Assembly (NCBI GenBank): GCA_958009085.1 | Contig: OY253683.1 | Location: 372,001-436,000 of the forward strand | DNA: 64,000 bases | From: Protoeuglena noctilucae | Lineage: Eukaryota | Direction: 5' to 3' | Shown here: positions 19,694 to 42,600 of the stretch, in pieces | Numbering within the stretch: position 1 is the first letter of the stretch | Layout: each line of letters starts with the position of its first letter | Position numbers and translations under genes: made by a program | The notes under the pieces: model-generated | The model's database searches: none | Seen by the model: only the letters and a program-made list of their open reading frames with translations | What the model was told of the DNA's origin: nothing

Positions 19694-22278
19694 CTAGTCG
19701 TCGTGGACGGTGGACCCCCGCGACGACGATGCGCCGCCGCAGACCGACGTGCGCGGGCTGTCGTCGCCCTTGGCGACATCAGGAGTCTCCCGGCCCCCGG
19801 CAGCCTCTGCGGGTGCCTCTGCCGCTGCCGCCCTGTCCTGGGAGCTCTTGACATGCAAGGTCAGGTTGATGTTCACGTTGGTCGTCCCTCCCTTGGCCGC
19901 TGCAGACGGAGGAGCGAGTTGCGAGGGGTCACATGAGCGCAGACGGAATGCACGATTCCATGTCCCTACAGGGCAGCAGCGGAGTGCCTCCTCACCCTTC
20001 TTGCCCTCCTCCTCGTCGTCGTCGTCATCTTCACCCTCCTCATCCTCTCCCCTGGGGCCCTTGCGGCCTCCCTTCTTGCCGCCCTTTGCCTTGCTGCCCT
20101 GGTCCTTACCGCCCTGGTCCTTCCCGCCCTCGGCCTTGTCGTCCTTGGCCGCCTCGCGCGCCTCCAGCTTGGCCGCCACGATCTTGCGCAGGTCGCTCAG
20201 CGCCAGCTCCGGCTTGCCGTAGCACGACAACAGCACGGACGACACCTCGGCGGGCGCCACCAGGTCCGCGGGCAGGGCGCCCACCTCGTCCTCCAGCGGG
20301 TGGTTGTCCCCGAACACGCGGCGCCAGAACTGCCGGAACATGGCCTGGTCACAAAGCCCCACGTAGATGCACTCCATGCGCCGCGCGCGCAGGAAGCTGG
20401 AGTCCTCCCCCATCTGCATGAGCTTCTCAATCGTGTTGGACGTGGCGATCACCACGCGCCCGGGCACGTTGAGGGCCCCGTCCAGGATCGCCTTGACGGC
20501 CTGCACCGTGGGCGCGTCCTCCGCCCGCACGCGCCGCGTGTTGGGCTTGTTGCGCATCCACTGGCTCCCCGGGTCCTCCTTTTCCCGCTCCTTGAGCGTC
20601 ACCGTGCTGTTGGCCACCATCTCCTGCAAGGCGTGGTCGAACTCGTCTAAAAGGTACACGACGGAGTCCGCGCCCAGGGCCGCGCTGTCGCCCCCGGGGC
20701 GCGTGAAGATCTGCTCGAGGCACGCCGTGGAGTCGATGGCGGGCAGGCGCACGTGCAGCAGGAAGCGCGTCAGGTCCCGGGCGATGGCCTTGGCCATCGA
20801 CGTCTTGCCCGTGCCTGGCGGGCCGTGCAGCAGGATGTTGACCTGGTAGTCGGCGCCGAGGCTCTTGAAGCGCGCCGGGTCGCGCACCGCAGCCACGATG
20901 TCCTGCAGCCGGCGCCGGCAGTCGTCCGACAGCACCAGGTCGTCGATGCGCGTCTCGGCGAGCGGGTGCTCGTGGTAGGCGATCGACGGAGCGCTGCACC
21001 ACGGGCGCCGCTTGATCTGGGGGACAGCATGGGTAGCGACGGGTCAGGCACAGGTCTCATGGGATGCTCGTCGTTCCGTAGACGGTGTGGATGGGGACGT
21101 GCATGCCGCAGGCCGGACACGCGGGCTGGCTCGTGGGCAGAGATAAGCGGCACCCCACACCTCGGGCCGCAGCACGGAGAGGTGCCTCCTTGCCGACTCG
21201 CGCACGTGGTCGTCGTACTCCCTCTCCCACGCCCGCAGCACGGCGTCCAGCTCCGCCGAGCTCCCGGCGCAGAGCACCTCCACCGTGATCTTCTCCTTGG
21301 GCCCCGCCTGCTCTGCCATGCGGCTGCACGCACGGCACACACGGGACGGGGTCTCGCGAAGGCGCAGCTGGATGCGGCGAGCTGCTGTGTTACCTCGCGT
21401 CCCTGACTGACAGAGCGTGCACTTCGAAAACGCACAGCTCAACCCTCACCTCATGTCGCCCAGGTCGCCCCAGGGGTCCATGACGGGAACCACGGCCTGC
21501 TGCTGGCGGCCCGGCTCCTCCTGGGTGATGTTACCACGCACCCAGACCTTCTCCCGGCCCCTGGCGTCCCTCGCGAGGCAGATCTTGCGCCACTTGATGG
21601 GGAGCATGTAGGTCATGGACTCCTCCTCGGTGCTGCCGATGCCGCGCAGGGTCGTGGCCACTTGCACAGAGACGCTGAAGGCATGGAGGGTGCTGGTGGC
21701 GAGGTGGGCGTTGATGCGGTGGAGCACAGCCAGGAAGCGCTTGGGCACGTTGTCCTCATCCACTGCGGTCCTAGCCGGGGCAGGAGACTCAGCGGGGCAG
21801 GATACTCACAAGGGCACCGTGCAGGCGACATGGCCCGTCACATGGGCGACAGGGCATGTGGCAGCGACCCGTCACTCGCCTGAAAGGTCCAGGGAGAGGC
21901 GGGCGTTCAGGCTGACCGAGGCCCTTCCGCGCCTCCCCCACCAGGACCACAGCACCCTGTGAGGGTGGTACTTGGTGTGGACGTACCAACCGACGGCCAA
22001 GAGGACGACGACCCACAGCCGCCGGCCATCGGGGCCCACCAGGGGGCCGACCACTTCCTGTGGTCGGGGCACGCGGATGCATTGGTTGCCTGGGGCTGCC
22101 TCAGCGGAGGGTGTTGGCGCTTGCGGACCCGGTCCGGACACCGGCAGCGCGTTACTCGCGCCGAGCGACGACCGGGCCAGCGGTCCCCCGCACTTGCCTT
22201 GGCCAAATCTTGAAGAAAATCCTTTAAACCAAACATCAGGATCATTTGGTTGAAGTCCATCCCGCCGCGTCCGTCCAT
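19694..22278 (-). CDS. BCS1-like membrane-anchored AAA+ ATPase, paralog 2 (6 exons)
   Basis: MDGRGGMDFNQMILMFGL (paralog 1: [12 protein letters not shown]), TM LWVVVLLAVGWYV, Walker [10 protein letters not shown], Walker B YLLDEFD, the same AAA C-terminal half as paralog 1, an acidic linker and last exon AAKGGTTNVNINLTLHV. GC donors at 22197 and 21879. Confidence 0.82.
20129..20496. repeat. 368-bp near-identical direct repeat, copy 2 (copy 1 at 12640-13007)
   Basis: Offset 7489 nt from copy 1, with 2 mismatches. Confidence 0.95.
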
Positions 22279-22892: not shown

Positions 22893-23857
22893 ATGACGGC
22901 GGCACCTTGGCTGGGAGGCTGCGCGCAGAGCCTGCCGGCGCGAAGGAGGCTTGCGGGAGTGAGGCTGGGCTGCTGCATCGCTTTGGCAAGCTTGCACGTC
23001 ACATTTTCCATCGCCTGTCCGGTCCTGAGTTGTTGCTGCTCGCTATCCCCGCAGCGTGCGGGCCCCTCCCCGCGATGTCGGGCCTCTGGAGCGCCCCTTG
23101 TCCACCTGGACAAGCAAACCTTCCTGAAATAACTTCGTGCGCGCCACGGGCGCACGAAGCACCGCGAGTGGCCGCCCCTGAGCGAGCTGCTCCCCGATGC
23201 TGTGCTGTCGGACATCTGCGTCGTGCTGGTGTGCACGAAGCTCCCCCGGTCGATCGGCTCTGTCGCGCGGAGCATGGCCATCTTCGAGTGCGTGGACCTG
23301 CGCCTGGTGGACCCGTGCGAAGTGACGAGGGCGTCATTCAACACCGCCAAAGTGAGCCCGCTCCCACTGACTGCAAGTCCTGCAGAGGGCCTGCAGCTGA
23401 GGTTTCTCGCCAAACGCTCAGCCGTCGCCGTGTCGGCTCCCAGGGCGGCCAGGCTGTCGTCCACCAAGCCCGAATATACGAATCGTTGGACCAGGCCACG
23501 ATCGACTGTGCGTCTCGCGTCGGATTCCACCGGTGGGTCGGGCAGGGCAGCCCAGGCGAGGGCGGCTCACGGCCGCGCGTGGCGGTGGGAGTGGACGCGC
23601 TGATTGCGCGGGAGGGCGACTTGCCGGGTGCAGCTGTGAGCGCCACGTCGCGGCCTCCAGGCGCGCCCAAGGTGGCTCTCGTGTTTGGGCGGGAGGACAC
23701 CGGGCTGACTGACAGCGACCTGCGTCACTGCGACACCCTGTGCTCCCTGCCTTGCGGGCGCCTGTGCGAGAGTCTCTCGCTGTCGCACTGCGTCACGGCC
23801 GTGCTGGCTCGGCTGTTCGAAGTACGGACAGCGGGCACGCCCACTCCAGGGTCATGA
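22893..23857 (+). CDS. SPOUT (TrmJ/SpoU-like) tRNA/rRNA 2'-O-methyltransferase with organellar leader; in-frame TAA at 23130-23132 upstream of the catalytic domain
   Basis: ICVVLVCTKLPRSIGSVARSMAIFECVDLRLVDP...AK / GGQAVV...KVALVFGREDTGLTDSDLRHCDTLCSLP...ESLSLSHCV gives SPOUT motifs 1-3. Introns 22959-23054 and 23352-23443. The N-terminal structure is uncertain because of the TAA. Confidence 0.8.
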
Positions 23858-24246
23858 ACGATCGTGTGCTTTAGTTGAGTCTTCGCGCATAGGCTGTACA
23901 TCACGGTTGAAAACGGTCTTCTGTTCTCGTCAACAGTTCCTGCTAAATGCTTGGTCCTACCACAACAGGCGCCGACCTGGTGAAAACCCACGGCATGAAC
24001 ACAGGTGGCTGCCAAGTGCATAAGTTGTTAGGGCACGGGACACGCATGGGAGAATGCTTTTGCGGCACAGCACAACATAAGGACAGACTAACACAAAATG
24101 GCTCCCCACGCCTGATGGGGAATGCAACTCACGACAAAAGGCGTCCGAAATCCCCTGTCCTGAACCGAGGGCTGTCAGGAAAAGCACGTTCTGTGGACCG
24201 CCGTCACGCAGAGCACGTTCCGAGGGCCGTCATCGCGCAGAGCACG

Positions 24247-27200
24247 TCACGAGAGCCCCTGCGCGCGGCTGCCCTGGATGGCGGTCTTGTGGAGCTCCAA
24301 CAGAGCGTTGTACTTCTGCATCATGAACAGAACCATCGCCAAGCCGCCCGCCCCAAGGCCCAGCAGCGACACCACCAGCCACGCCTCGCGGCTTGTCCAC
24401 CGACCGTCGTCATCGCCTGGGTGTGACGACGGGGGCGCGGTGGGGGTTCACACAGGGCAGGGCCATGCCATCCGCAGCGAGGGGTAGACAGTGAAATAGA
24501 CTGCTCTTCATTGTAGAGAGTGAGAAGGGCAGAGGTAAGGGCAGGGTGCCTTGGTAGCAGCAAAACGCTCACCGGAGTTGGAGTCCGGGCGCATGCCCCT
24601 CGAGCCGGCCTTGGAAGTCAGAAGCAACGCAGGGTCCCTGCGTGGGAATCATAACAAGGGCATCTGAGTGCCGACACAGCACCGAGTGAATTACGACGTG
24701 TCATGCTGGCCAGGTCCGCGCGCTCATGGCACCGCCGCACATCTAAGCAAGCGCATCTGGGCATGGTGAAGGTTTCAGGTTTGCTTCCCTGCCCGTCCAT
24801 GTCCCTCTCACCACTCGCTGGGAAACACGGGCTTGGCCGTGGCAGACGGCAGGCCACTCCACATGCTCCCCCGGGCGCTGCCGGCTGCGTCGGGGCCGTA
24901 GAGGCTCGATGTCTTGGACTGCAACCAGAAAACGGGCAGCTGCACGTCAGGTATGTCATTTCATCGTATCATGCCACACATCGACAAGTGCACCGTCCCT
25001 GACTAGTGCAACTGGGGTCACGCACACACTGCACAACACAGGTGGGTCAGAGCCGCATTCCTATCACCGCCGTAGACACCATGCTTTATGAAAGCCCCGC
25101 CGCGGCTCACCAATCGGAACCCGGCGGGGTTGCCGGGCGGGGCTCCGTAGATGGAGGTGCGCATGCTGCGTCGGGACTGCTGGGTGTTGGACGCCGCACG
25201 GAGGGACACGACGCGGGTCATGTGGTGCGTGTCCAGGGCCAGGATGTCGAGGGGCGTCGTGCTCGTCACCGCCACAGAGCGGAAGCTGCTGTCTCCAAGG
25301 AAGAAGGCCCAGCCACCTTGGTTCAGTGCCACGAGCCTGGGAGCGAGGCGCGAGCAGTGCCGCAATTCGGCAACGATACATGCAAAGGGCTGTGCACAGA
25401 GCAGGCATCGTGCACCTCTACAGGTACACATTGTCAACTACACCTCGCCAGCCTTAGCCCACGCACGGCGGCTGGCATTGCGCTGTGCCCTCATCACCGA
25501 CCCATCGCTCCGCACCTGTCCCCGAGCTGTTGGATGTAGCTGACCCGCAGGAGGCGCCCGGAGGAGGATACAACGAAATAACCGCCCCGCCCCTCGTCAC
25601 CCGTCCAACCCAGGGCGTCCGGCCCTCCGCCCCAGAGCTTGTCGTCCCGCCGGTCCTGGCTCCTCCGGCGACGCCTGCGGGTCAAGTGCAGTGCAAATAA
25701 TGCTCTTTAGACTGCCCGCAGTTGACTGCATAGGTCAGCAGACCAGGTGCATGCATGTGTTAGCGCGCTGTGACGGCCACCGCAGCCATCGGCCATCCGC
25801 CGTTGCAAACCGCAACCACCGCCGTCCACCGCCGCCCCGCACCTGCCCCCCGCCGCGCGCTCGCCGGGCGCCTCGACTGCGGCCACCGTCACCGCGTCCC
25901 CGCTCATGTCCCAGTCCGGCAGAGCCACGGGTTCCTTCTTCACCAGGTCCCAGACCTGGCAGGCGGACGTGGAAGCTAAGAACGGAGCTCCCGACTCGTG
26001 TTGGCTCCTGGCGGTGCCGGTGGCCACGACCAGCCGGCCGTCCCGGGACACCGCCACGGCGGACCCACATGGGGCGGTGAACTCGAGCAGGAGTCGGCCC
26101 CAGGCGAGCGAGGGGGCGAAGGCCTGGACGCCTTGGGTCAGCCGGGACCACAGGGCAAAGGCGGAAGAGGACTCTCGCCAGGTGAAGACTCGCACGGCGC
26201 CCTCCACCGTCGCACACGCCTGTGGCAGAGGGAGGGGCGGCGCGGGGTGTTTGGATGACTGTTGGTTGCATGACAGTGGCAGGCGTGAGCTTGTTGGTGA
26301 TTTGTTTGTTTGAGAGGGTGGCACCCTGTCGATGCCGGGAGGGTAGGGAGTAGCGTGGGACTGGAGAAACAGCTGCAATGGTTGCGGGTGCTACTGCTGC
26401 CACTGCTCACCAGGACGGTGCCGTCTCCGCTCAGGGAGACGTCCGTGACCAGGTTGCCACAGTCGGGGCTCTGCCACACGCACGCCCACCGGTCCGTCCA
26501 GCCCTTGAAGAACGGCTCGCGCCACACCCGCACGAACTGGTCCGCGGACCCCGAGGCGACTGCGGGGATCGGGATGATTGCCGATAACATCACGTCGACT
26601 GACTCACGCATCAGCATGGGCCTGACAGCCATGAACATCCCTGCACGTCGCACGTCGCACGTGCTGTGCTCTGGTTAGAGCTGCGCTCCAGAGCTGCGCT
26701 CGCCTATGGTGCCGGAGTCGTTGACGGAGCACGCAGTGATCTCTGCGGTGTGGCCCCGCATCCTCCCGACGGCCTCCCGCATGGCGGTGGAGACGGCGCA
26801 GAGCGTCCCGTCGCTCGACCCGCACACGCACACGCTGCCGTCCCGGCTGAAGCTGACCGTCATGACGCGGCGCGTGAAAAGCGCCTTCTCAACCAGCAGC
26901 GACCCGTCCGGGCGCCACAACGCCACCGACCCGTCCGCGCCGCCCGTCGCCGCCATCTGAGGTAAAGAACACCACACCTTGGTCTGGGTCTCTCCACGCA
27001 ACCCATAGCATCATTGCTCTGACATCCGAACTCGCCGTGTTCTGGACCCCAGTCACCCGCTACCGATCCCATCCCTCACCTTGGTCGTGGGGCAGATGGC
27101 GCTGGACTTGTCGCGCAGCAGCGGCCCAGCCAGACGGAAGGTGGGCTGAAGGTACAGCGACGGCGGGGCGCCCGTGGCGTCGATGGAGGCGCGGCGGCTG

Positions 27201-30200
27201 CCCCGGGCCTGGTTCTGCCGCGTGCCGGGGCTGGCGGGGCTCGCGCTGGGCTTGGCGTTGCACCCGTCCGCCGCCCCGATCGACCTCCGCCGCGCGTTGT
27301 CCCTCAATGACATCGACATGCGGTGCTCCATGGACAGGCGCTTCCTGTAGCGAAAGGAGACGCAGTGTGCATGTTAGGTCAGGGTCACTGGGGCGGGCGC
27401 TGCACATCAGGCGAGAGTGTGTCCCACGCCAGTCCTTTGGTGGGACATTGTCCGCCCACCAGGGCACGCAGCCAGGGCACCTCTCTGCCTACTAGTCCAC
27501 CTGTCACTAGACCAGGCTTATGGCCACCCCCCCCCCAGCCTCGCCTGGGCGGCAGGGAGTCCTTGAGGAAGACGCGTCGGTCGAACCCATCGATGGTGGT
27601 GGAGCTGGTGGGGAAGACGAGGAGCCCGTCGGCCACGGCCACGCTGCGGGTTTCTGGCGTGACGCCGATCTCGCGGACGAGGTCCACCGACACAGAGCAG
27701 CGGGAGCGGAGGGCGGTGGTCCCTGCGCCTTTGGGCGAGTCGTGGCGGCCTGGGACACTCGAGGGCGACAGGGACCCAGGGACGGTCGTGGCGGTGTCCT
27801 CGGAGTTAGAGGGCTCCCCGGCATTGCAGGAGATGCGGAAGAGGCGCACAGTGTTGTCCTTGCACGTCGAGGCCAGCCACTCCCCACAGAAGGACGCACG
27901 CAGCGTCATGACCCAACTCTGGTGGCCCTGCGGGTGGGCGGAGGGATGTGGCACGGCCTTGTCGGTGCTGAGTGGGTGCGTGGCGGCGCGGGCAGCGTGG
28001 TGGAGCGAGAGCGCATGCGGCAGCGCATTTGCACAGCAGTGCAAGGGCCATGGTCTGCCCACGGGAGCATCGCTGCGTCACGGCTGCAACGCTCGCCTGC
28101 ACGACGGTTAGCTCCTCCTGCGTCAACACGTCCCACACCCGAATCTTTCGGTAGTTGCTGCCCGTCACGGCCAGGGCTCCGTCCGTGGGGTTGCAGGGGT
28201 TCTTGATGAGGCACACGGCCCTGCATCAGAAGGTTGGGCCACTCGGATCAAGCGATGCTACAACTATTCAGAACTGCCCGAGTATTCACAAGCAGCACAG
28301 TACTATCGGAGGGTACCGCGGGTAGTACTGACGGGGTACTGATAAGTGTTACTGAGCATCATTGGACGTCGCTTGCGCTCACCGGACTTCCAAGGGATGC
28401 TTGAGGTGCCGCATGGTTCCCGAGGCGGGGCGGTAGCCGCCGGAGCTGAGCCGGGGGTTGCGCTTGAGCATCACCGCCCCAACCGTGCCGTCGTCGGTCC
28501 CCCAGGACACCCACATGCGCGTTGAGGGCAGGAGTAAGAGGTCGCAGGCCTTGACGGCGGAGTCGTGGCGGTGCTCGAATGCCACGCTCTGCCTGCCCTC
28601 GGCCAGGTTGTAACACCGCACGCGGCCCTGGGCGCTGGTGGTCGCCAGCACCTCCCCGTTCACCGACAGCGCCACAGCCTTGTTCCTCCCCATCGTGGCG
28701 TCGAACTCGTGCTTCTTCTCCACCAGCCTGCGAGCACAGGCGTGCGGGTGCAACGCTTGAGTGCGTGCGCACGCTGCCCCACGGGGCTGTGTCTTAATAC
28801 CACTACTGGGGTTGCGACTGGGTGAGGCAGCTCGCAGTGCTTGACATCCAAGCAAGCGAGGCTGTACGGTGAAAGACTCGTAACACACTTGTCACGCTTG
28901 AAAACACGCCACAGATGCCTCACCATGGCCCGTCCTCCCCAGCCCCCGGCCCAGTGACGTCCCACACGGCCACCAGCTTGCGCTCGTAGCAGGCCGCCAC
29001 CCGCCACCGTGTGTCTCCCATCCGCACCACCGCGCAGGACGTGGCCTTCTCGCTCATGTGCTGCACCTCGGCCAGCAGGCGGCCCCTCTCCAGGTCCGCG
29101 TCAGCCTCCCACTGCAAGCACGGCCACACCCGGGGTGACGGCGAGGGTGCTAGTGATGGTGAGGGTGGCAGTGGCAGTGACAGTGACAGTCCAATCCCAC
29201 GAATGCATGCGCGGAATGTGTTCATTCCATGTCACCCATACATAAATTGTCTCGCCAGGGCCTCACCAGCAGCACCACCCCGTCCTCGGAGCAGCTGGCG
29301 ATCTTACTGCCGTCGGGGGCGACGCTCACGCACTGGATGCGCGCGCAGTGGCCCCGGATGGCCACATGGGTCAGCGCCGGCGCGACCTGCAGCGGCGCAT
29401 GACACACACCAGGGGGTATGTACAGCAGGGATAGCATGGTGGTACCAAGGACACATGGCGCACAGCGGCTCAGGCTCACCTGGGACAGCTGCTTGGTTGG
29501 CTCCTGCACGCCGCGCATGGCCCCGTCGGTGAACCGCGAGGCTTTGCTCGCGGCCAGCACCCCAGACAAGTCCCAGAGCTTCACCACGCCGGTCCTGGTC
29601 CCCGCCGCAATCAGCGCCCCATTGCCCGTCCACGCCCCCGTGGTCATCTCCTCTCCTCCCTTGAACTCCGCAATGCGCTCCCCGGTGTCGACGTCCCACA
29701 GCCCCACCGCGCTCTGCTCGCGCCACGTGTACACGCACGCCAGCGCGCCGTGCGTGCGGCACAGGCCGCACCACTGGGGGTCCCCGCCGGGCAGCTTGAT
29801 GTCCCCAATGGCCGAGGCGGTGAGCCCGTCGAACAGCCGCACCGCCCCACGCACGCACGCCGCCACCGTGACCTGCATGCCCCGCCGCGACTCCCCCACG
29901 CGCAGGCTGCAGTGGTACACGGCACTCGCGTCTCCCAAAGAAGCCACCACCGTGCCCTTGACCCCCGCCCGCGGCTGCACCTCCTCCTCCCCCAGCTCCC
30001 ACAGCAGCAGCATGCCGTCGAGGGCGCCAGAGACGGCGTAGGCCCGTCGGGGGACATGGCCACGCTCGAGACGCCCCGCAGGTGCCCGGACAGGATGACG
30101 GGCTCGTGCGACCGCATCCACTGCCAGACGCGCACCGTGTGGTCGTCGGACCCCGTAAGAATGCGGTCGCCGGCGTCTGACATGGCGACGCAGCTGATGG

Positions 30201-33200
30201 CGCCCGCGTGGGGCAGGCTCCCGGGGGACGGTAGCACGTGCATGCGCGCCCGCAGCGGGCCGCCGTTGAGCATGGCCGTCGCTCCGGATGACGACGCCGT
30301 GTTGTGCGTGTTGTGCGTCGTGCCGCTCATGCCCAGCACGCCCAGGGCGGACCCGGGCGCGGGGCTGTGGAGCATGGTGTTGGTGAAGGCCAGCGAGCCC
30401 TGGTTGGTGTGGGAGGCGCTGGGCGATGGCACGGGGCGGTCACCCGAGGGGAACACGCCGTGGGGCGTCGACGCACCCGACAGGTTTGAGTTGTTGCTGT
30501 CGTTGTTGGAGTTGTTGGTCGAGCTCCCGCGGCCGCGAAGGGTCTGGAAGCCGTCGCCCCCGACGCCCTCCCACACGTAGAGGCGCCCGTCGGAGCCCCC
30601 GGCGGCAAAGACGGCGCCGTGGCGGTCCACGGCCACGCACCCCAGCGTCGCGTTGGTGCCGGTGCTGAAGACGCCGCGGAAGAGACCGGCCGTCACGCTC
30701 CACACAGACACCTGCGGGGTTGGGGGATGCTGGCGTCAGACCCTTGGTCGGTCTTGATCAAGGCGTGTCGCATGTAGCAGGGGCGCTGTGGGGTTTCACT
30801 GAAAGCAGTTGCAGCTGTACATGCCACATGAGCAATGCGGCACACACCTTGCTGTCTCCGTCGCTCATGTCCTCATCGACGGCGACAGAGGCGCAGACGG
30901 CTCCGTCCGCGGAGAGCGCCACGCCTGCGACGGGCTGGGTGTGCGCCACGAGCGACCCCACGAGCGGCGCAGGTGGGACCGACGTCTCTTCTTGAAGCCA
31001 CGACTGCACGGGGAGGTCCTGATCCTCTGCCAGGTGCTCAGCCATGGCGCGAGGGAAGGTGTTGGGAGCCGCCGACGCAAGGGCCTGGGGAGCAGCGAGC
31101 CAGTCCTTGCTTGTAGCAACACTACTGATAATCCCTGATGTCGCCCATCGGCCGCAGCTGCACTGGTGTTGGGCGAGGTCAATATCAACATGTGGGCGTC
31201 GTTCCCGCCCCCTGTCACCTGGTACACCATCTCCAGTGCGTCCGGGTGCTCGGCGTAGGCCCCGAGAGACGACAGGAAGTGGCTCATCTCACGTAGGTTG
31301 CGCAGCATCTGCCGTTCCCTGGCCAGGTCGCCGTCCTTTCCCAAGTCCTCTGGCAGACGCATGGCGGGGAGCACCACGTCCCGGCCCACACGGCGCGAGG
31401 AGGGGCGCTCCTGCAAGGCAGCGGGGGTAGGAATCAGGGCAGCTGAGGCTGTGTGGTTGTAACTGCTGGGCCACCATGGCACCACCGGTGGCGCCGGGTA
31501 CAATCGTGCGAATGCGTGTGATCAGAACGCAGGCGCAAGTCACACCTGCCGCAGCCTGCGGAGCTCCAGTGCCTTCTCCTTGACCGCATAGACGGCCTGG
31601 AGCTTGCGGATGAGGGCGCCGACATCGGTGAGGAAATCCTGGAACTGCAAGCGACCGGCCTCGAGCTGGGCGCGCGCGAAGGCGATGTTGGTGATGACTT
31701 GGGAGGAGAGGTCGAGGACGGAAGACGAGGCGGGCCAGAGGGAGTCCGAGGCGCGGGCGGCGTCGTCACTGGGGAAGTCGCACTCCAGGTCCAGCGTGGC
31801 GATGAAGTGGCGCAGCGTGTGCTGCAGCACGTACTCGTGCGCGTGGCCCAGGTGCACCACGCCGGGGGTGAAGACGTCCGCGATCTGCAGGCGGTACACG
31901 ACGCGCACGCACCGCTCGGCCATCGCCGCGTGGAGACGCGCCAGGAAGGCGCGGGAGGCGTTGGCGTCCCGTCCTGTTGCTGCTGCGCCCGTGCTGGCCC
32001 CCGACTCGCTCGCGCCGCCCCGGCGGGCCGCCCCGTGCGCCCGCACCGTCGCCCTCTCAAACAGCCACTCGCGCATGCTCTGGTGCAGGAACTGCAGCGT
32101 GCGGCTGCCCCCCTGCGGCGACGACGACAGCTCCACGAGCTCCTGGAGCCGGTACAGCACGGGCGACAGGTCCGACGCCTGCAGCACGTTCCCAGTGCGG
32201 GCGTGAACCATGAGGTCCGCCACGTCCTGGGGCCTCATGGGCTCGAGCGCCACCATCATGATGGACAGCAGGTCCTCCACCCGCTGCCGCATCTCGGGCT
32301 CGAGGCCGTCGTAGACGCGGGCCAGGTCCAATTCGAAAATCGAGTCGAGGTTGGCCGGGAGGTCCTGCAGCTCCGCGAGCGTCCAGGTGCGGTTCTGCGC
32401 CCCGATCTGAGAGAAGATGCTCCGCATGTACAGGAAGGAGGTGTTGGAGTGCTGCAGCAAAAGCTTCACGGCCTGGGGCAGGTCGTCTGCTGGGATCATG
32501 CCCTGGGGGCGAAAACGAGGGAGAGGGCGAGGGGTGACACAAGAGGGTGGTCACGTCGAGGCATCGCAGCGCATGGCCTGGGAAGCGCTGCCATCTCTGC
32601 GACGGTTCATCGCAGGTGCGGTGGGTCACAACAATCGTGCTGCGGTGGGTAACGATCGATCGTGCTGTGGCAGCTCGCCTGGAGTCTCTTGTGCGCGAAG
32701 GCGCTGAGGTCGGCCTCGAGCTCCGGGCGGAATCTGCACACAGCGAAACATTGCTGGATCACGGTCCTTGATTGTTGTCTCTAACTGCATGCTCAGCTCA
32801 GCAAGTCTCTGGCTTGCAGCCAGCACACGGCATTGGATGACGCAGCAACGGCTCCTCGCCTCTGCAGGTCCACCCACACCGCCCTCCCCCGCAGCCGCGA
32901 CAGCCCCGCCTCTCTTCCCAGAAAGAGGACGTACGCGAACGGGGACAGGGAGGTCCAATCCAGCGACAGCAGCATGACGCGCTCGCGCTCGGGCATTTCG
33001 TCCACGCCGTCGATGACGATGAGGGCCTTGGACCCCGCGCAGTCCGCTGCCACGGTGCGCAGTGGACCCTCGATCATCGCCGTGAAGGCGTTCGAGGCGG
33101 GGACCCCCGTCATGCTCCCTTCCTCCGCACCCTGCACGAAGCGAGAGCACACGGTCACCCTAGTAACCAAGCGAGGCTGCTGCCACCCCAGCTGGCCTGG

Positions 33201-36200
33201 GGCCTTGCTGGCTGCTTGCCGCACAGCGCACGTCAGGGCACGGTCGCCGCCGCGCCTTCCGCGCACGCCTGGGGCCCTGGAGGCGCACCTGGACGGCCGT
33301 GGCGGCGTCGAGGATGAGGTCGAAGCACTGCGGGATGGACGAGGCCAGCTGGTACGCCAGGCTGTCGATGACACGCCGTGCGGACTTGGTGAGGTCCGTG
33401 GAGTGGTGGCAGAAATGGAAGGCCTTGATGTCGAGCCGCTTGATCTGACAGAGCGCCGCGGCAAACGTGGTCTTGCCGATGCCTCCCGGCGACACAATGC
33501 ACATGATGCGCTGGGCACGGTCGTGGGCGGCGGGGGCCTCGCGAGCCGCGGCTGCCGCGTTGAGGGAAGCGAGGATCTCCGCCGGGCCGTGGCGCTTCGG
33601 GGTGGCACCGGGGCGAGACACACTGCACGCGGGGGTCGGGATGGCAGGTCGGCTCAGACACAGCATGCGAGGGCATGCATGCTCCACACACCCTTGCCGC
33701 GGCCAGTCGTTCCCATGCATAGCAAGTGCGCCCCACGCACCACCGCCCCAGCCCCTCAGCCAGGCTCACCTGCTGAAGGCGCTCCCCGCACGGCTGTCCA
33801 CCCAGTCGCGCACCCAGCTCTCGACTTTGTGGACCAGCCACTCCCGGGTCCCCTGCTCCAGCCGCGCCCCCTCGCGCCGCACGCGGTCCAAAGACGGGAA
33901 GTACGCCACGGCATCGAGGACCTTGGCCAGTCGGTCCAGTTTCACCTTCAGATAGGACTCGATGATACCGTTGGCGCGCACGGGGTCCAGCTCCCACTGC
34001 AGCGCCAGGGCTGCGAGGAGCTCCTTGAGCGTTGAGGGCTTGCCGGTTTGCCCCGGGCGCGACTCGGCCCACGCGGTCAGCTCGATGTGGAGCGCGTAGA
34101 CCTGCAGGGCCTCGACGCTGCCGGTCGACATGGGGTCCAGGCGTGAGCACAGGAGGATGTCTGCGGGTCATGGGACGTGGGTGGTCGTGACGGGGGTAGC
34201 TAGGGGCGGGACGGAGTGGCGGGGTGCTGAGTGGCCAGGCGCATGCAGTGCATGTGGCGTCGGCCCGTTCCATGAATGTCAGCTCGTGAGGCAGGGTTGT
34301 GCTCACCGAGGAAAGGGTGACGGAGATGCTGCTTGCGCACCGCGATGCCCTGCCGCTCCGTCAGGGCCAGGACGCTCCGGTCTCCCCTCTCGATCGTCTC
34401 GGCAAGGGAGCGGTCCGCGGCAGCCATCCGCAGCACCGCCTCTTTGAACGTCTCGTAAGGCACCGTGTCACTGTCCGCAGACACCTCCTCCTTCCACAGA
34501 GCCTGCAGGGACATTGACCGAGAAGCCGTGTGTTATGTTACAGCGCTGTTCACTCGCGCCGCTTTTCATCAGCGTCTTGCACCGTCGCAGCAAGCGCACT
34601 CCGGCAAGGCAACACGGTAGTTGAAATCGCACATGCAGAGCCTGTGCCCGTGCATGCATGCTGCGTGCCTGGAGCTGGGGCGGAAAGTGCTTGGGGAGGT
34701 GCAGCCGTGGTGCACCCTGCACGCCCCTCAGCTCCATCTCCAGCTCCTCTGCCAGCTCACGCGCCGTGATGCGCCGGTAGGCGTCCATCTCAAAGCACAT
34801 ACGAAGCGACTGCTTCAGGCTGCGAGGGGTCGCGGGAGGCAATGCGAGTGGCCGTCAAGACAGGCGGTGGCAGGGGCGCCCAACGTGCTGCAGGGGTGCC
34901 CAACATGCCGCGCGCATCCTCTGTGCCTCCTTCTCACCGCTGGCTGACCGTGTTGGGCAGGAGGCGCCAGTCCGGCGGCGACCCGACCTGCGAGGGCCCA
35001 GTTGAGGCAACCTGTCACGCAGTGTCGAGAGAGCCATGGCACCTGCCCCTCGACGTGAGCGCACACCAGCTGCCGTGGCAGTCGCGGCGTCCGCGGCATG
35101 CCATCTCTCACCTTCCAGATGCGCTTGGCGCAGAGAAGCTCGACGATGAGGTAACCGAGCGACCACACATCGCTGGCCGTGGACAGCGTCCCTCCCTTCT
35201 CCTCGGCCTGCTCCGGGGCGCAGTAGGCAAGCGTGTACGCCTCGACCGCCACCTGCTTGTTGCTGCCCAGGGCCTTGAGCGCCCCGAAGTCGCTGATGTG
35301 CACCCCCAGCTTGTGGTCCAGCAGCACGTTCTGCGGCTTGAGGTCCGAGTGTGCTGCGCCCAACTCCTCATGGATGGACTGCAGGCCCGTTGCTATCTCC
35401 AAGCTCATGCGGAGGGCATCCTCGAGCGGGGGCGGGTGGGGAGCGTACTGCTGCATGTAGCGCCTGAGATCCATCGGGTACAGATGCATCACGATGGCGC
35501 TCCCCGCGACACCGCAGGCGTGCCCCTCCCCAAACTGAGTGCATCCGTACAGTTTGGCCACGTGGGTGCAATGGAGCACAACGTCGAGGAACTTGATGAT
35601 CTCCTCCCGCAGCTGCTTCATCGTGCGCGACGCCTCCGAGCCGATGTAGATCTTGACTGCCACGTCCTTTGGGTGGCCCCGGCCGTTGGGGCGGTACTTG
35701 CCACGCCGCACCACCGCGAAGCCGCCCCGGCCCAGCTCGGGCTCGTGGGGGTCGATCTCGATGAACTCCGCAGGGAGGAAGAGACGGCTCGCCAGCTCCG
35801 CTTGCGGGGTGCCACCCAGCGGGCCCTGGTGCGCTGAGGGAGCCTGCAATCGGGGGCGCGGCAGAGGGTGCGGCAGAGGGTGCCATGGCGAGCACGACGG
35901 AGTGAATCACTTCCTTGACATGCCGCTGGGTCGTCAGAGTACCCTCAGTTCGTGTCACAGTGGGCTTACCTCCGGCTCGCGCCCGCCCTGGAGGCGCTTG
36001 TAGCGCATCGACATGCTCTTCATCGGGTCGGCATCCACGCGGCGGTGCGTCAGGTCCGTGCCGCTGTCCACGCCGTGCATCTGCGAGGGGCGCCGCCCTG
36101 GCTGCTGGGTGCGCATCGGCGTGTAGAGGCCGGCCGGAGAGGCCCTGGCCGGGAGGGGTCCGGCGCTCTCCTCCTTCAGCTGCGCTGCAGGCACGTCCCC

Positions 36201-36723
36201 TCGCCCTCGGATTCGCGACCGCAAAGCTGCGGGGGCGAAGGGCTCCGGAGGCTCGGCAACGCAGCGAGGGGCCATCGTGACGGCCCAGGCCCCGCGACCC
36301 CGATTCGCCGCGAACCAACTCACTTCCCGAAGTGTCAATCGATGGGGTGAAGATGGCCGCCGCGAGACCGCCGCCGGTCTCGGAACCGGCCGCGGACTGC
36401 CCAAACACCGCTTGGCTCGACAATGAACGCCTCCTTCGCATCGTTCGAGGCCGGGTAGCTGCAAAGCCACGACCGAAGGGGCGAGTTACCGACATTGATA
36501 AAGCCGTGAATGGATATATTGGGCCAAGAGGTGCACGCTCGCCTCCACGGTCGGATTCCTCTGCCTCTTCATCCAGATGACCCGCCGCGCGACGACCCAG
36601 GCGACCCAGGCGGCTCCGCACGCTCGCCCCAGCCGCCTGAGACTGCCACGCGCACGAAGGGACGGAAACCGCGCCGGCGTCGTCGGCGCCGGGCGGTGCA
36701 TCATTCGGCGGGGGGACAGACAT
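24247..36723 (-). CDS. Large (~2,800 aa, ~28 exons) Ser/Thr kinase - NACHT(STAND) NTPase - WD40 repeat protein with C-terminal TM tail anchor; 1-nt frameshift near 30043
   Basis: Kinase: GRGGFAVV, VAVK, HSDLKPQNVLL, DFG, YCAPE, DVWSLG. NACHT: GTREWL, SPGGIGKTT, AFHFC, VIDSLAYQLA, LIVIDGVDE, SFLY...LPANLDSIF. Multiple WD40 repeats, e.g. HAGAISCVAMSDAGDRILTGSDDHTVRVW and GHTAEITACSVNDSGTIVASGSADQFVRVW. Last exon AWLVVSLLGLGAGGLAMVLFMM. Exon junctions are phase-consistent. Confidence 0.8.
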
Positions 36724-37060
36724 GATGCCCGCCACGACAAGGCCTCCCCGGACCGATGAGCCTGAAGAATCGTTACAAACGTGCTAAAGGACGCCGACGA
36801 TGCCAAGAACAGCCACTCGTTGCGCTCGTTCGAGCGCAACGACACGCAGAGTGCGCCGGCAGCCACTCAAACGGCGGCAGGCCGTCCCGCAGGAAAGACG
36901 AAATGTCGCGCATGCACAGTCACAATTTCAACAAGCTACGGGGCGGGGCATGGTCAAAATAGCGTCATTGCGCCGCGGTTGACCTGCGCAAGAACACCCA
37001 GCCCCGCAGCCCGCTGCCCAGCTGCACCCAAATCGTGAGCAGTATCCCACTACTCAGACG

Positions 37061-37910
37061 TCACCGCTCCAACTCGATCATTCGCCGCACAGAGTTGACC
37101 GCAGCCACCGCGTCCTCCGAGCTGCGGGAGGCGAGCGCCGTGGTATCGGCAAAAGGACTGGGTGTGATGACATGCCGGCAGCGTCCTCAGGCAACACCAC
37201 GGCCACTTACCACAGATATGTCCGGGCGATCTCCCCCTTGCGCAGGATCGTGACGGTGGGCATCTTTGCGATACGGTAGTCCTTTACCAGGTCGTAGGGC
37301 ACCGAGTTCACGTCCACGAAGAACAACGGGATGTTCGGGTACTGCGGACGCACGTATGAGGCGCCGTCCTGTGCCAGGCTCGCCCCTAATGCATCTGCGA
37401 GCACCGTTTGTGCCATGCCAGCCCCCACTGGTGACGCACCTCCGTCTCCATCAGCTTTACCAGCTTGGGCTTGATGTACTTGCACTTCCGGCACCACGTG
37501 GCCATCCAATCGACCAGGCAGAGCTCCTCTCCCATGACCTTTGTCCTGTGCGTGAGGGGCAAGCGACCATTCTGCACCTCAAACAGCGCTGGGCTCGACA
37601 GGCAGCGACAACCCGCTCTGTTGAAGCATTGAATAACCCTTCCATTCCAGAATCAACGCGCAAACGCTCGCCTGAACTCCTCTTCGCTCGCAATCAGATC
37701 GTCCATGCGCGCCTGCCCATCTGACCGCGTGCCATCGCTCTCTGCCCTCGCAACGACGCTCCGCGATGCGATCCAACACGGATCGATCCGCAGCCGGGCC
37801 CGCGACGTTGCAAATCCACGCCTGGGGGACGGGACAGCCGCGGCAGCAGACCGCGCAACCCCCACGCGAGCAGGGATCGTGACCCCCGCTCCTACGCCCT
37901 GTGCGTGCAT
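37061..37910 (-). CDS. Chloroplast WCRKC-type thioredoxin (thioredoxin-like 3), 4 exons
   Basis: Transit-like leader, then [19 protein letters not shown] / [15 protein letters not shown]...KMPTVTIL; final exon [20 protein letters not shown]. The first intron has a GC donor at 37671. Confidence 0.88.
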
Positions 37911-39623: not shown

Positions 39624-42600
39624 CTAATAGGCCTGGTCTCCTCGGATCTTGCCCCAGAGAGCGCCCAGCACGGGCACCAGCATGGCCCACCCCATCTCCA
39701 CCTTGTCCGTGGAGTTCACGCGGAAGGATATCTGCAGGGACCAGAGCAAAAGCCGCAAATGGGTCAGAAAGACTGCGCCGAGCGCAACAGCACCGCCGGC
39801 AGAGACACTGACAACGCATGAACTTTGACATCGCAGCGATGACGAGTTCCATCAAAGCACAGACCCCTCGGGCATGCCTGCCGTAGAAGCAACCCGTCCA
39901 GCGCATCGCATTGCTTGACCCCTTCAAGAGTCGGTCCCTTCGCGTGTTCACCTGGCCCGTGCCCTTGGTGTTGATCGTGGCCTTCGCGAAGCCAGCCGTG
40001 CCCTTGGTCATGCTGAACTGCGCCTGCGCCGACCCCGTCACGTTCGTGTCCCTCCGGTGGCGCATGAGGTTGCACCCCACCGTGATGCGCGTGCTGTCAT
40101 CCTCGCCACGCTTCAGCTTCGCCTCCAGGTTGCCGGCCCACGCCGTCTCCCTGACCTTGCTCGTCCCCATCGCCTTGACCTGCGCGGACACGACCAAAGG
40201 CAAGGGTCATGCTTCCATCGCATCGCCCCCGCCCGTCGCTCCGCCAGTCAGCCCGCCCCACGCTGCCGCCCGCAGACACCCCGCCGCCGGCGCACCTGGC
40301 TGGTGACCATGGCCAGCGAGCCCCAGAACTTGCTGCTCGGGTCGAGCCAGAACCGGTCCTCAATTTTGAATCCGTATGCCATGGGGCCCGACAGGGGCAC
40401 GCGGCCCTCGGCGAGGCGGGAGACGAGCACGCCGCCCACGACCTTGTTCTTGCGGCCCTCGCCGCCGTCCCTCATGTTGGTCCACCGCATCTCCGTGGTG
40501 TGCGTCCAGAGCGTGTCGGGGCCCATGGCCTGCATCTCGGCGCCCAGGGTGGCCACCAGCTCGCGGCTCAGGTAGACGGACGCCTCGCTGTTGCCTTGCA
40601 TGGAGAAGGCGTTCTTGTCCTTGCTGATCTGGCACATGGCCGTGAAGGGGTGCCCGCCGATGTAGCGGCCCAGCGGCCGCACCATCCCGGCGTTCTCCAG
40701 CTGCAGAGAAGGAGCCGGGTAAGGACACTGGCTCAGCGGGATGCACAGAGCACGGTGAGGACAATGCACGGGGCGAGCATGGCAGGATGCCTTTTATGGA
40801 GCGCGACCGCGCTTGCCGGACTATGACTGCAACATCCATGGCGCATAGTAATGCTACAACTGTACCCCCTCGGCTCGCCTGCGTGGCCGTGATGTTGTCG
40901 TCCTTCTCGTAGCCGTTGTGGTCGATGGCCGGCACGGCCCTCCACGACGCCACATCGTTCTGCAGGTAGCGGTAGCGGTGCTGCACCGCCTCGTGCTCAA
41001 ACGTGGGGTTCTGCGGCGGCTCCGGGCCCAGGCTCCCCGGCGAGTCCCGGGCCTGCATGGCCTCCATGCGCTTCTGGTTCTCCAGGTCCCTGCGGCGCCT
41101 CGTCTCCTCCTTTGCCTCCTCGGCAGGGAGCTGCTTGATCTCGTAGTCGAACTTGACGTCCTTCTCGTCTTCCGGGGGCTTCTGCGATGGTATGACAGCA
41201 CGGCGATGCGTGCAGTGGTGTGGAACAGTGCACAGGGAGTGGGCAGGGAGCCAAGGGTAGGGAGCTGACGGTGGGGTGCCAAGGGTGGGAGCTGAGGGTG
41301 GGGTGCCAATGGTGCAGAGGTAAGGGAAGAGAGCCAAGGGCAGGGACTTGGATGCCCCACTGCCCACTGCCACCACGCACCTTGGGCGGGTGCGCCTGGG
41401 CCAGGTTGGTCGCCAGGTACGCCACGGGAGGGATCTTGGCGCCCATGCCACCCAGTCCGCCCAGGAGCGCCGCCAGGCCCTGGGGCTCCGAGGACTTCTT
41501 GTTGGCCACCTTCTGGACCTGCGGGTGACACGAGGGCACGCGGCGGGGGTAAAACAGCTGGTCGACTTCAGTAAGAAAGAAGAGCCTGGCAGAGGAGCCA
41601 CCCTTGAGGTGCGCCTGCTGCGCCAGGTGCTATGGGGTCGAGCGCAATGGCGTCTCTTGTTCTCTTGTGCGCAGCACGAACAGCGGCACTCGCCTTCATG
41701 TCGTCGTCAAGGCTCTGGAGGATCCCGACGGCGGCGATGAGGTTGAGCACGCTGGGGCGCCAGGGCTTGCCGTTGGGGGTGAGGGGCTCGCCGTCAAACT
41801 CGCGGCGGTCGCGGGGGAAGTTCTCGGCCACGATGACGGGCGGGGTGATGCGGGCGTCGTTGGAGCTCTGGCGGATGGTGGTGGTGAGGAGCTGGGCGCG
41901 CTGGGAGGTGTAGGCCTCGTAGTCCAGCGGGCCCTGGGTGCCCTCGCCGGGGGACGTGCCGGCGTGCGTGAGGACCACCGGGGTGTTGTACCACATGCTG
42001 CGAGACACGGCAGTGGTCATCGGGGATTAGTCTCGACGGAGCGGTGACCCCCTTGCATGAGCAACCATGGGCAGCAACCATGGACAGCCAAGCGTGGTCG
42101 TGACGGGCCTCACCTTCGGCCGAGGATGCTAGAGATGGTGCGGAAGAGCTCGAGGTCCCCGAGGTTGCGGCGGACGTAGTCGAGGCGGTCGAAGTAGAGC
42201 ACGACTTGGGGCTTGTACCAGTCGGCCAGGGCCTTGATGCGCGTCAGCAGGCGCATGTTGCGGCCCTTGTCGGCGCTTGAGGGGATGAGTCCCGGGGTGT
42301 CGATGAACTTGAAGCGCGTNNNNNNNNNNNNNNNNNNNNNNNNNNNNNNNNNNNNNNNNNNNNNNNNNNNNNNNNNNNNNNNNNNNNNNNNNNNNNNNNN
42401 NNNNNNNNNNNNNNNNNNNNNNNNNNNNNNNNNNNNNNNNNNNNNNNNNNNNNNNNNNNNNNNNNNNNNNNNNNNNNNNNNNNNNNNNNNNNNNNNNNNN
42501 NNNNNNNNNNNNNNNNNNNCAGCTGTCCGAAACGCGACGAGGAGCATCCCGCAAGCCGCGCAGCGCACCTCAGATCCGACTTCCTCCAGGTCCCCGCCGT

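Follow-up and report, generated by a model that had tools for sequence, protein, structure and literature searches.

A predicted tail-anchored kinase-NACHT-WD40 protein encoded in Protoeuglena noctilucae

A 64,000-nucleotide stretch of Protoeuglena noctilucae DNA (GenBank assembly GCA_958009085.1, contig OY253683.1, positions 372,001 to 436,000; called the window below and numbered from its first letter) carries on its minus strand, at about 36275-24247 and with a poly(A) site at 23895, a gene in which a Ser/Thr kinase, a NACHT-type STAND NTPase, a long WD40 region and a C-terminal hydrophobic helix follow one another. An earlier note, made from the letters of the window alone, had presented these parts as one tail-anchored protein. 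The balance of the evidence tips slightly towards the reading that all parts belong to one protein-coding gene for a membrane-anchored STAND switch with the kinase as its output. The layout was shown to be conserved as one open reading frame (ORF) in two other organisms. From N- to C-terminus, the predicted protein would comprise a low-complexity head, a non-RD Ser/Thr kinase, an EF-hand-like pair with a helical linker, a NACHT-type NTPase with a winged helix, the WD40 repeats and a tail-anchor helix. The best gene model has 28 exons and 7,947 coding bases, encodes 2,648 residues and contains no internal stops.

Among eukaryotes, the outputs used by STAND/NLR proteins outside animals, plants and fungi are poorly known. 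The gene described here belongs to a conserved and very rare algal family, that of a machine predicted to be tied to a membrane and to have an intact kinase as its output. If the switch model were true, the protein would be a simple system that reads NLR-type activation as phosphorylation, and it would open a way to study signalling, which may be antiviral, in picophytoplankton of the sea.

Homologues and the unity of the gene

When exon 10 of the model (319 residues) was searched against 1.84 billion representative proteins, 12 matches were obtained at E<=1e-3. Two relatives are full length: P0002 (2,802 residues), which comes from metagenomes, and P0004 (2,632 residues; CAG9464661.1) of Pedinophyceae sp. 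YPF-701, annotated as an 'unnamed protein product'. Both carry Pkinase, NPHP3_N and WD40 in the same order as well as a terminal helix, and a Pfam TANC1-type winged helix is listed for P0004. The order effector-NTPase-repeats, here kinase, NTPase and WD40, is thus common to the window model and both homologues. The remoter matches are TIR-NPHP3_N proteins, with ankyrin repeats in P0010 and without them in P0012.

The gene for P0002 is a single uninterrupted, intronless ORF of 8.4 kb (positions 203-8767 of locus L002) and is 100% identical on three metagenome contigs. The DNA of L002 has a GC content of 65-70% and holds a long ORF further downstream; it is genomic DNA, and its source organism carries the gene without introns. 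The downstream ORF (9525-11288, 587 residues) matched no Pfam family at E<=1. Residues 69-2715 of P0002 are colinear with the window from 36035 to 25168 (tblastn). The kinase and the NACHT-WD40 part are regarded as one gene because P0002 holds both in an uninterrupted ORF on three contigs. As that ORF spans the kinase through the helix and P0004 has the same order, the claim of the earlier note that this is a single gene is borne out.

The model, curated as described below, is 40.8% identical to P0002 (1,018 of 2,494 aligned columns) and 32.6% identical to P0004. Identity to P0002 and P0004, respectively, is 64 and 48% for the kinase, 53 and 41% for the NTPase core, 41 and 33% for the helical and winged-helix part, and 36 and 28% for the WD40 region. 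The WD40 part can be aligned with P0002 over 1,164 columns at 36% identity and is not hypervariable. The conservation of kinase and NTPase with all their motifs kept may be read as a sign of selection on activity, as predicted from sequence.

A metagenome scan with P0002 returned its own gene (three loci) and 28 loci that matched the WD40 or kinase part only, at 24-43% identity. A scan of the metagenomes with exon 14 found no relative, and a protein search with the P-loop exon among proteins of up to 2,000 residues gave nothing, the known relatives being longer.

Gene model and RNA evidence

Four public RNA runs, all from a single marine metatranscriptome study, contained 18-44% of the sequence words sampled from the locus, and four 'organism A' runs contained all of these words. 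Contigs from RNA runs X1, X2 and X3 and from one 'organism A' DNA run, X5, were mapped to 23800-37200. Spliced contigs of X1 and X2 back 14 of the 27 model introns, all in the 3' half (24416-29479); 13 were seen as skipped stretches, while the fourteenth (25675-25842) was deduced from contig record positions. After allowing for positional ambiguity, all 14 have GT..AG or GC..AG ends on the minus strand. The GC-AG type accounts for three of them (26560-26703, 27345-27544 and 27928-28096) and for six of the 27 introns of the whole model, with donors that are mostly GCGAG. Joined together, the RNA-backed exons give 1,030 open codons that end with the helix and a stop codon at 24249-24247. Contigs of X3 are unspliced (one crosses the confirmed intron 26220-26410), and they are informative on the sequence and silent on splicing. 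One of them terminates at 23895 in a loose T run (plus strand), which marks the poly(A) site of the kinase-NACHT-WD40 gene; a second loose T run, at 36913, is the end of an upstream minus-strand gene. The gene unit is bounded by these two sites, that of the upstream gene at 36913 and its own at 23895.

The earlier note had placed the 5' end at 36723. This could not be upheld: in windows of 40 codons the ORF that begins there reaches between -0.31 and 0.02, whereas windows of known coding sequence never fall below 0.06. Codon log-odds turn coding-like at about 36190 in the frame of an ATG at 36275, which is the likelier, tentatively assigned, start. As for the 28 or so phase-consistent exons that had been proposed, an open chain of 28 exons does exist; phase is kept, however, only with a putative bypass intron near 30046, discussed below. 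The median intron length of the model is 155 nucleotides and its GC content at third codon positions (GC3) is 0.895, in a window where GC ranges from 0.62 to 0.74 in 2-kb steps. In a check for introner-type repeats, the introns of the gene matched neither one another nor any other part of the window.

A purpose-made gene finder, combining codon bias and splice sites by dynamic programming, recovered 10 of the 14 RNA-backed introns and was used for drafts only. Its first exon (37081-37065) was rejected, as it lies beyond the poly(A) site of the neighbour at 36913. In a variant with a homology bonus exons overran into weak donors, and in one with strict donors a conserved exon was lost. The junctions of the 5' half were therefore curated singly against P0002 and P0004; the curated model and the best draft each have 1,021 residues identical to P0002, with 454 gap columns in the former versus 487 in the latter. 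The features of the gene are as follows, in the order of transcription.

35970..36275, minus strand: exon 1 (tentative), ATG at 36275, low-complexity N-terminus, residues 1-102; from codon log-odds, with the P0002 tblastn match beginning at 36035; donor GTAAGC
35112..35843, minus strand: exon 2, kinase core, residues 103-346; Pkinase match and motifs; acceptor TTGCAG at 35844 inferred
34938..34987, minus strand: exon 3, a mini-exon of 50 nucleotides, kinase subdomain X/XI, residues 347-362; dynamic-programming model, flanked by GTGAGA donors
34669..34819, minus strand: exon 4, end of the kinase domain, residues 363-413; homology to P0004
34307..34502, minus strand: exon 5, first half of the EF-hand-like pair, residues 414-478; junction GTGAGC..CGCAG
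33770..34160, minus strand: exon 6, second EF-hand-like loop, helical linker and GTREWL, residues 479-608; curated junctions
33289..33622, minus strand: exon 7, NACHT-type NTPase with Walker A, residues 609-720; NPHP3_N match, junctions by homology
32860..33131, minus strand: exon 8, Walker B and presumed sensor-1 arginine, residues 721-810; conserved motifs
32679..32733, minus strand: exon 9, 55 nucleotides, residues 811-829; donors GCGAGG and GCGAGC, homology
31546..32502, minus strand: exon 10, helical and winged-helix domains of the NACHT module, residues 830-1148; HTH_TANC1 at 1.4e-6
31219..31410, minus strand: exon 11, helical spacer, residues 1149-1212; junctions by homology
30848..31084, minus strand: exon 12, spacer with the beginning of the first propeller, residues 1213-1291; tblastn with P0002 residues 1295-1375
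30064..30711, minus strand: exon 13, WD40 and low-complexity insert, residues 1292-1507, 3' end uncertain; WD40 at 4.9e-15
29480..29974, minus strand: exon 14, WD40, residues 1508-1672; its 5' end hangs on the choice of bypass intron
25111..29386, minus strand: exons 15-25, remaining WD40 region, residues 1673-2535; all introns between them from spliced X1 and X2 contigs
29386-29267, 29111-28924, 28727-28383, 28220-28097 and 27927-27545, minus strand: exons 15-19; spliced RNA
27344-27080, 26956-26704, 26559-26411, 26219-25843, 25674-25516 and 25336-25111, minus strand: exons 20-25; spliced RNA
24918-24812, 24637-24573 and 24416-24247, minus strand: exons 26-28, low-complexity tail, helix and stop codon (24249-24247); RNA-backed introns
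23895..24246, minus strand: 3' untranslated region and poly(A) site; end of an X3 contig with a T run

Homology is the sole support of exon 3, whose peptide PPDWRLLPNTVSQR pairs with GPDLGTIPDAVPHD of P0002. Exon 4 (PRLHLPKHFPPQLQA) matches PKLHLPPHLSQELRA of P0004, and the peptide of exon 9, RFRPELEADLSAFAHKRLQ, pairs with LFRAELEQDIESFAKSQLQ of P0002. At the donor of exon 10, two RNA contigs (record 3 of X1 and record 7 of X2) both depart from the window sequence at 31545, and the homology used for the junctions of exon 11 is that of HPDALEMVYQ|ALASAAPNTF to HPEAASLTFQAIMSAAPGTF in P0002. RNA contigs cover exon 13 over 30163-30644 (X1) and 30155-30707 (X2).

Two further joints, 28025-34423 and 29185-34716, were treated as repeats or chimeras, having sides of 21 letters and non-splice ends. 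Among 13 loose ends of RNA contigs that were checked, one maps within the window (37122 to 37212); the others are paralogue or chimeric joins and uninformative.

Kinase domain and linker

Pfam was run on the stop-to-stop ORF pieces of the window. The Ser/Thr kinase proposed in the earlier note was recovered as Pkinase (PF00069) at 1.3e-28 and 100.6 bits, against a cut-off of 31.7, in 34815-35906. The catalytic motifs quoted in that note are present: VAVK at 35663-35652, HSDLKPQN at 35351-35328, DFG at 35291-35283 and APE at 35219-35211, with a glycine loop also in exon 2. VAVK, H[SG]DLKP, DFG and APE are common to the window protein, P0002 and P0004, and by its motifs the kinase is predicted to be catalytically complete. 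It is of the non-RD type, with HSD in the window protein and P0002 and HGD in P0004; non-RD kinases have been linked to pattern-recognition receptors. Among proteins of solved structure, RIPK3 is the best match by sequence (4.5e-15); since EGFR, MKK6 and the insulin receptor (INSR) follow by a narrow margin, no kinase subfamily is drawn. PADLOC and NCBIfam gave matches in the kinase part only (the mad6, PD-T4-6, MkoA and Stk2 models), and the NCBIfam kinase matches lie far under their cut-offs.

The linker between kinase and NTPase matches no Pfam family, and its exons are 36-38% identical to those of the homologues. The equivalent region of P0002 was modelled with AlphaFold at a mean predicted local distance difference test score (pLDDT) of 70.1, with 75-89 in the first 100 residues; the model has two helix-loop-helix units with short paired strands. 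With VIA-align, the top match was the EF-hand of the Cbl TKB domain (Z 7.1, root mean square deviation 2.0, 79 aligned residues), and the other matches listed are mostly EF-hand proteins (Z 3.5-5.2). Foldseek returned nothing significant for the linker, the best E-value being 0.22, and its loop residues, as read from the sequence, are non-canonical for an EF-hand. The modelled fold thus weakly suggests that the linker is EF-hand-like.

NTPase module

The NACHT-type STAND NTPase of the earlier note was confirmed in its motifs, with SPGGIGKTT at 33492-33466 and LIVIDGVDE at 33023-32997, and by an above-cut-off match to NPHP3_N. On the ORF piece 33160-33765 the NPHP3_N match is 5.1e-7 and 30.5 bits (cut-off 24.8); on exon 7, NPHP3_N (PF24883) reaches 2.2e-7 and 31.6 bits, with 44.9 bits for P0002 and 57.4 for P0004 against the same cut-off of 24.8. 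Exon 8 matches positions 120-150 of the NPHP3_N profile at 0.017. The winged helix was found as HTH_TANC1 (PF25521; 1.4e-6, 28.6 bits versus a cut-off of 27) in 31540-32550. The nearest entries to exon 10 in the ESM Atlas are fungal NLR winged-helix families (WHD_GPIID, WHD_TANC1 and WHD_NWD1) and NPHP3_N, at scores of 0.89-0.97.

The Walker A motif GxxxxGK[ST] reads SPGGIGKTT in the window protein and includes GFGKT in P0002 and GTGKT in P0004. Ahead of the P-loop, a GTxxWL motif is seen across the three proteins as GTREWL (33852-33835), GSRQWL and GTRDWL. The arginine of LFLGRE (32927-32910), which follows strand 4 and is kept in the three proteins, is presumably sensor 1. The Walker B motif, likewise kept in all three, is hhhhDGVDE and hence of the NACHT type rather than the NB-ARC type hhhhDDVW, a contrast described in the available text of PMC4773052.

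In the P-loop exon, an X2 RNA contig (depth 3.1) is one base short at 33388; the base is present in the DNA run. The difference is either a strain variant or an assembly error.

The fold was checked on an AlphaFold model of the P0002 module (mean pLDDT 72.3; predicted TM-score 0.45). Foldseek matches to this model were led by MalT (4.9e-7), Avs3 (1.3e-6) and Apaf-1 (3.5e-6), followed by NLRP5, CED-4, plant NLRs, NLRC4 and NLRP3, with best matches from 5e-7 to 1e-4. There were 160 matches at E<=0.001, with TM-scores that are low (0.2-0.43) because domain orientations differ. The module model of P0002 thus shows the STAND fold of nucleotide-binding, helical and winged-helix domains.

WD40 region and terminal helix

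WD40 repeats had been claimed and were found: PF00400 is above its cut-off in four ORF pieces within 26675-30735, and a fifth piece is sub-cut-off (21.4 bits); the pieces with WD40 repeats run from 30735 down to 26138. The piece covering exon 14 matches at 3.4e-11, and its top-scoring repeat falls in exon 15. The region is about 1,250 residues long, and a regular expression of our own found nine WD-type strand signatures in residues 1286-2284. For P0002 and P0004 the WD40 matches are 117.6 and 131.1 bits.

The terminal hydrophobic helix of the earlier note lies at 24387-24316 (residues 2603-2626), in the last ORF piece (24247-24447), and is followed by 22 residues and the stop codon. With a Kyte-Doolittle score of 2.27 (19-residue window) it is more hydrophobic than any other segment of the protein; just one further segment reaches 1.6, with a score of 1.61, at the junction of spacer and WD40. 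The strongest segment is C-terminal in all three proteins, with the helix at residues 2761-2782 in P0002 (20 residues after it) and 2605-2624 in P0004 (eight residues after it). The helix is predicted to be a tail anchor, weakly hydrophobic and rich in Gly and Ala, with a basic C-terminal tail. Its modest hydrophobicity combined with a basic tail would suit the outer membrane of an organelle.

Mode of action and the points that weigh against it

In STAND NTPases a repeat sensor closes the NTPase, and a ligand brings about nucleotide exchange and oligomerisation. By this model, the WD40 part of the protein would keep the NTPase closed in the resting state. Once a ligand is bound, the NTPase could exchange its nucleotide and oligomerise at the membrane of an organelle or the endoplasmic reticulum, on the cytosolic side, and oligomerisation would juxtapose the N-terminal kinases, which could then phosphorylate one another or a substrate.

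Several points speak against a membrane-anchored switch with kinase output encoded by one intact gene. The mechanism itself (oligomerisation, kinase activity and membrane insertion) is drawn by analogy only. The start codon at 36275 is a tentative assignment, and the donor of exon 4, GCACGC, is unusual; the frame-keeping donors listed for this exon are all of a weak GC type, GCACGC being the one that fits the homologues. No RNA joint between kinase and NACHT exons is present among the joints listed for this genome, the link resting on the homologues. The Pfam NACHT profile PF05729 gives 14.5 bits on exon 7, under its cut-off of 26.7; it has no entry for P0002 or P0004 at E<=1e-4 and reaches 25.8 bits on the distant relative P0012. 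The NTPase is filed under the NPHP3_N family and not under PF05729 because the latter match is sub-threshold. A sequence profile of the module found nothing under E 0.05 among PDB sequences, and neither PADLOC nor NCBIfam has a model that matches the NTPase part. The frame break near 30046 is present in every assembly seen, and a full-length protein would here need the putative bypass intron. Finally, if the function is taken to be immune, a family with so few members (12 among 1.84 billion representative proteins), which are colinear from species to species, looks unlike the expanded, fast-changing repertoires of immune NLRs.

The same switch may serve a non-immune end, as a housekeeping regulator or scaffold on a membrane, similar to NPHP3, TANC1/2, NWD1 or LRRK2-type proteins and concerned with traffic, flagellar or organelle control. 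This is a possibility to be taken seriously, if short of probable. Animal members of the NPHP3_N NTPase family are scaffolds and ciliary proteins, and the NTPase and winged helix match NPHP3_N and a TANC1-type winged-helix domain. The relatives are few and colinear among distant algae, no paralogue of the gene was found in the 64-kb window, and the WD40 region can be aligned with P0002 throughout the 1,164 columns (36%) given above. On the other hand, the non-RD kinase, its marginal similarity to RIPK3 and the effector-NOD-repeat order are also typical of immune STAND proteins.

The frame break near 30046

The copy in the window has a break of frame inside the WD40 region.

30046..30048, minus strand: frame break, a run of three G that is one base short of the reading shared with P0002; from homology

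On the minus strand the break reads GACGGGCCTAC; the frame before it gives HTVRVWQWMRSHEPVILSGHLRGVSSVAMSPDG and the next frame then gives AYAVSGALDGMLLLWELGEEEV. In the P0002 counterpart, VAISPSGAYAVSGSLDG, both halves form a single uninterrupted WD40 blade. The window switches frame at this point with no intron, and one added base in the G run would restore the shared reading. The same sequence, with no gaps, was found in an X5 DNA contig (24744-33075) and in a contig of the X3 RNA run, which belongs to another study (29728-30331). The ORFs P0018 (15 contigs) and P0020 (a 304-kb contig) start only in the second frame. No intact longer ORF across the break was found in a collection of 5.8 billion clusters, in which the best match was 41% identical. 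Because the same sequence recurs independently and no intact ORF was found, the break is considered real.

Three bypass introns would be in frame, at a cost of 30-54 residues of one blade.

30135-29975, minus strand: bypass intron candidate, 161 nucleotides, GTGCGC..GTGCAG, of typical length and ends
30063-29975, minus strand: bypass intron candidate, 89 nucleotides, in frame
30063-29996, minus strand: bypass intron candidate, 68 nucleotides, in frame

The contigs of the spliced runs stop at 30163 (X1) and 30155 (X2), and by bin arithmetic none lies in 30058-30154. This gap in cover would fit the 161-nucleotide candidate, missing cover not being evidence.

In the absence of a bypass, the gene would be a frameshifted allele that leaves the conserved frame at about 30046 and meets a stop at about 29644, and the four-part protein would exist only in the relatives. 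Either mRNA decay would leave no product, or the protein would be cut short, keeping the kinase, the NACHT and two or three WD blades but lacking the membrane anchor. We regard this as unlikely, though with a good deal to be said for it. Similarity to P0002 crosses the break in two frames without an intron, the break recurs in the X5 DNA, the X3 RNA-run contig and the ORFs of 15 and one contigs named above, the 5.8 billion clusters hold no intact ORF, and the local identity exceeds the average of the protein, which implies that the stretch was coding until recently. Against it stand the 15 downstream exons, which are open over more than 1,100 codons, have a high GC3 and are still spliced and polyadenylated, and the availability of three in-frame bypass introns, of which that of 161 nucleotides is typical. 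The open and spliced downstream exons do not decide the matter, since a recent frameshift would look alike.

P0019 (141 residues, from an 861-nucleotide ENA contig) tracks the window at about 30013-29640, through exon 14 to EEMTTG, beyond which its residues are unrelated. It represents either a chimeric contig or an alternative transcript.

Immune, decoy and two-gene readings

The switch with kinase output might more specifically be a green-algal, one-protein platform of innate immunity or cell death, built as if an NLR had been fused to a RIPK-type kinase and anchored in the manner of MAVS. The anchor would direct it to the mitochondrial or chloroplast outer membrane, the WD40 part would sense a viral or organelle-damage signal and oligomerisation of the NACHT would switch on the non-RD kinase. 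The effector-NOD-repeat order and the non-RD kinase speak for an immune role, and there is precedent for NLRs across animals, plants, fungi and bacteria in the portion consulted of bioRxiv 10.1101/2022.07.19.500537. Taken as a whole, this proposal is improbable. Were it true, the frame break would mark a conflict gene that either was lost recently or is rescued by splicing.

That the kinase serves as an integrated decoy, baiting pathogen effectors rather than providing the output, is very unlikely. Decoys of this kind have been suggested for certain NLRs of fungi and plants, and such a role has been proposed for the PKinase domains of Sordariales NLRs in the accessible part of PMC12258605, where nine of 12 cases are C-terminal; the kinase is here N-terminal, in the position of STAND effectors, it is the most conserved part of the protein and all its catalytic motifs are kept in three distant proteins. 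Least credible is that the kinase and the NACHT-WD40 part are two adjoining genes on the same strand whose fusion is only apparent: depth is low around 34600-33700 and none of the RNA contigs listed bridges that interval, but the P0002 ORF spans both parts on three contigs, P0004 shares the order, the linker exons are conserved at 36-38% identity, every junction keeps the frame without stops and, in the rows listed, the interval between 23895 and 36913 is free of poly(A) loose ends.

Relation to known systems

The novelty of the four-part architecture had been put too strongly in the earlier note, in view of bacterial clusters with Pkinase and NACHT or Pkinase and NB-ARC, fungal NLRs with PKinase and NACHT-WD40 proteins of Chlamydomonas. 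When residues 101-1300 of P0002 were compared with the ESM Atlas, nine of the 10 clusters listed combined Pkinase with NB-ARC, NACHT, nSTAND6 or AAA_35, at scores of 0.88-0.91; the seven of these nine with recorded taxa are all bacterial. PKinase is among the listed, rare N-terminal domains of fungal NLRs (PMC4986451, as far as its text was available) and occurs in 12 Sordariales NLRs (PMC12258605, in part), and NACHT-WD40 proteins have been reported from Chlamydomonas (PMC4773052, in the excerpt seen). A kinase paired with a STAND NTPase is in itself nothing new. The combination of an N-terminal non-RD kinase, an EF-hand-like linker, an NPHP3_N-type NACHT, a very long WD40 region and a tail anchor was not found described in algae; the literature search, of incomplete coverage and thus weak evidence, likewise found no description of a tail-anchored kinase-NACHT-WD40 protein. 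The value of the gene is limited by the wide occurrence of the kinase-STAND pairing in bacterial collections and its listing for fungi, and the copy in the window may be broken.

The closest counterparts are P0002 and P0004, which resemble the window protein in the order of parts (kinase, putatively EF-hand-like linker, NPHP3_N, winged helix, WD40 and helix) and in the catalytic motifs. P0002 differs from the window gene in having neither introns nor a frame break; the low-complexity inserts of both proteins differ from those of the window protein, and both are uncharacterised.

Fungal NWD/HET-E NLRs and the animal proteins NPHP3, TANC1/2 and NWD1 share with the window protein the NTPase family, the type of winged helix and GTxxWL, and NWD, HET-E and NWD1 also a C-terminal WD40 part. 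Neither a tail anchor nor an EF-hand-like linker is known to us from NWD/HET-E NLRs, NPHP3, TANC1/2 or NWD1. Fungal NLR repertoires are large and variable, whereas the family in the window is small and colinear, and the sequence identity of fungal and animal NPHP3_N proteins to the window protein is too low for direct matches.

Bacterial fusions of a Ser/Thr kinase with a STAND NTPase (Bacillota, Cyanobacteriota) are similar to the window protein in having an N-terminal Pkinase, then the NTPase and often repeats. These clusters are look-alikes to a language model, which does not imply kinship; they are prokaryotic, about 900-1,400 residues long and mostly uncharacterised, and none of those listed has a WD40 array or a tail anchor.

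LRRK2/ROCO proteins combine a nucleotide switch, a Ser/Thr kinase and WD40 in one chain and act on membranes. Their switch is a ROC-COR GTPase and not a STAND NTPase, the kinase follows the switch and there is no tail anchor. The likeness to the window protein is one of analogy, as the switches are not homologous. The NACHT-WD40 proteins of Chlamydomonas reinhardtii come, like the window protein, from a green alga and combine NACHT with C-terminal WD40; compared by description only, they have no kinase and no membrane anchor reported in the part of PMC4773052 at hand.

Neighbouring features of the window

The surroundings of the gene are ordinary eukaryotic housekeeping and contain no defence cluster.

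36913-37652, minus strand: thioredoxin-like upstream gene, PF00085 at 1.8e-6 in 37386-37652, poly(A) site at 36913
23477-23818, plus strand: SpoU rRNA-methylase-like ORF piece (9e-8), convergent with the 3' end of the gene
40290-40706, minus strand: TOC159 membrane-anchor domain, part of a chloroplast import receptor (2.9e-12)
1337-4283, minus strand; 9326-10805, plus strand; 13368-13664 and 19988-21025, minus strand: coding-like pieces with Pfam matches
44703-45365 and 47188-47754, plus strand; 54246-54665, minus strand; 56301-56636, plus strand: further coding-like pieces with Pfam matches

The Pfam matches in the coding-like pieces are to a ClpB-like chaperone, an EF-Tu-type GTPase, two AAA ATPases, a PHD finger, Ada3, a proteasome subunit and an IQ motif. 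The TOC159 domain supports a plastid-bearing host of the green lineage and fits the label of alga given in the earlier note. In the thioredoxin-like neighbour there is an intron at about 37123-37211: in three RNA runs, contig ends that come loose at 37122 continue at 37212. The transcripts of the SpoU-like and kinase-NACHT-WD40 genes have ends that are about 100 nucleotides apart at most. At 42119-42676, six overlapping ORFs on both strands and in several frames have strong codon-bias 'coding' scores of 86-141, which suggests a GC-rich simple or triplet repeat and not a gene.

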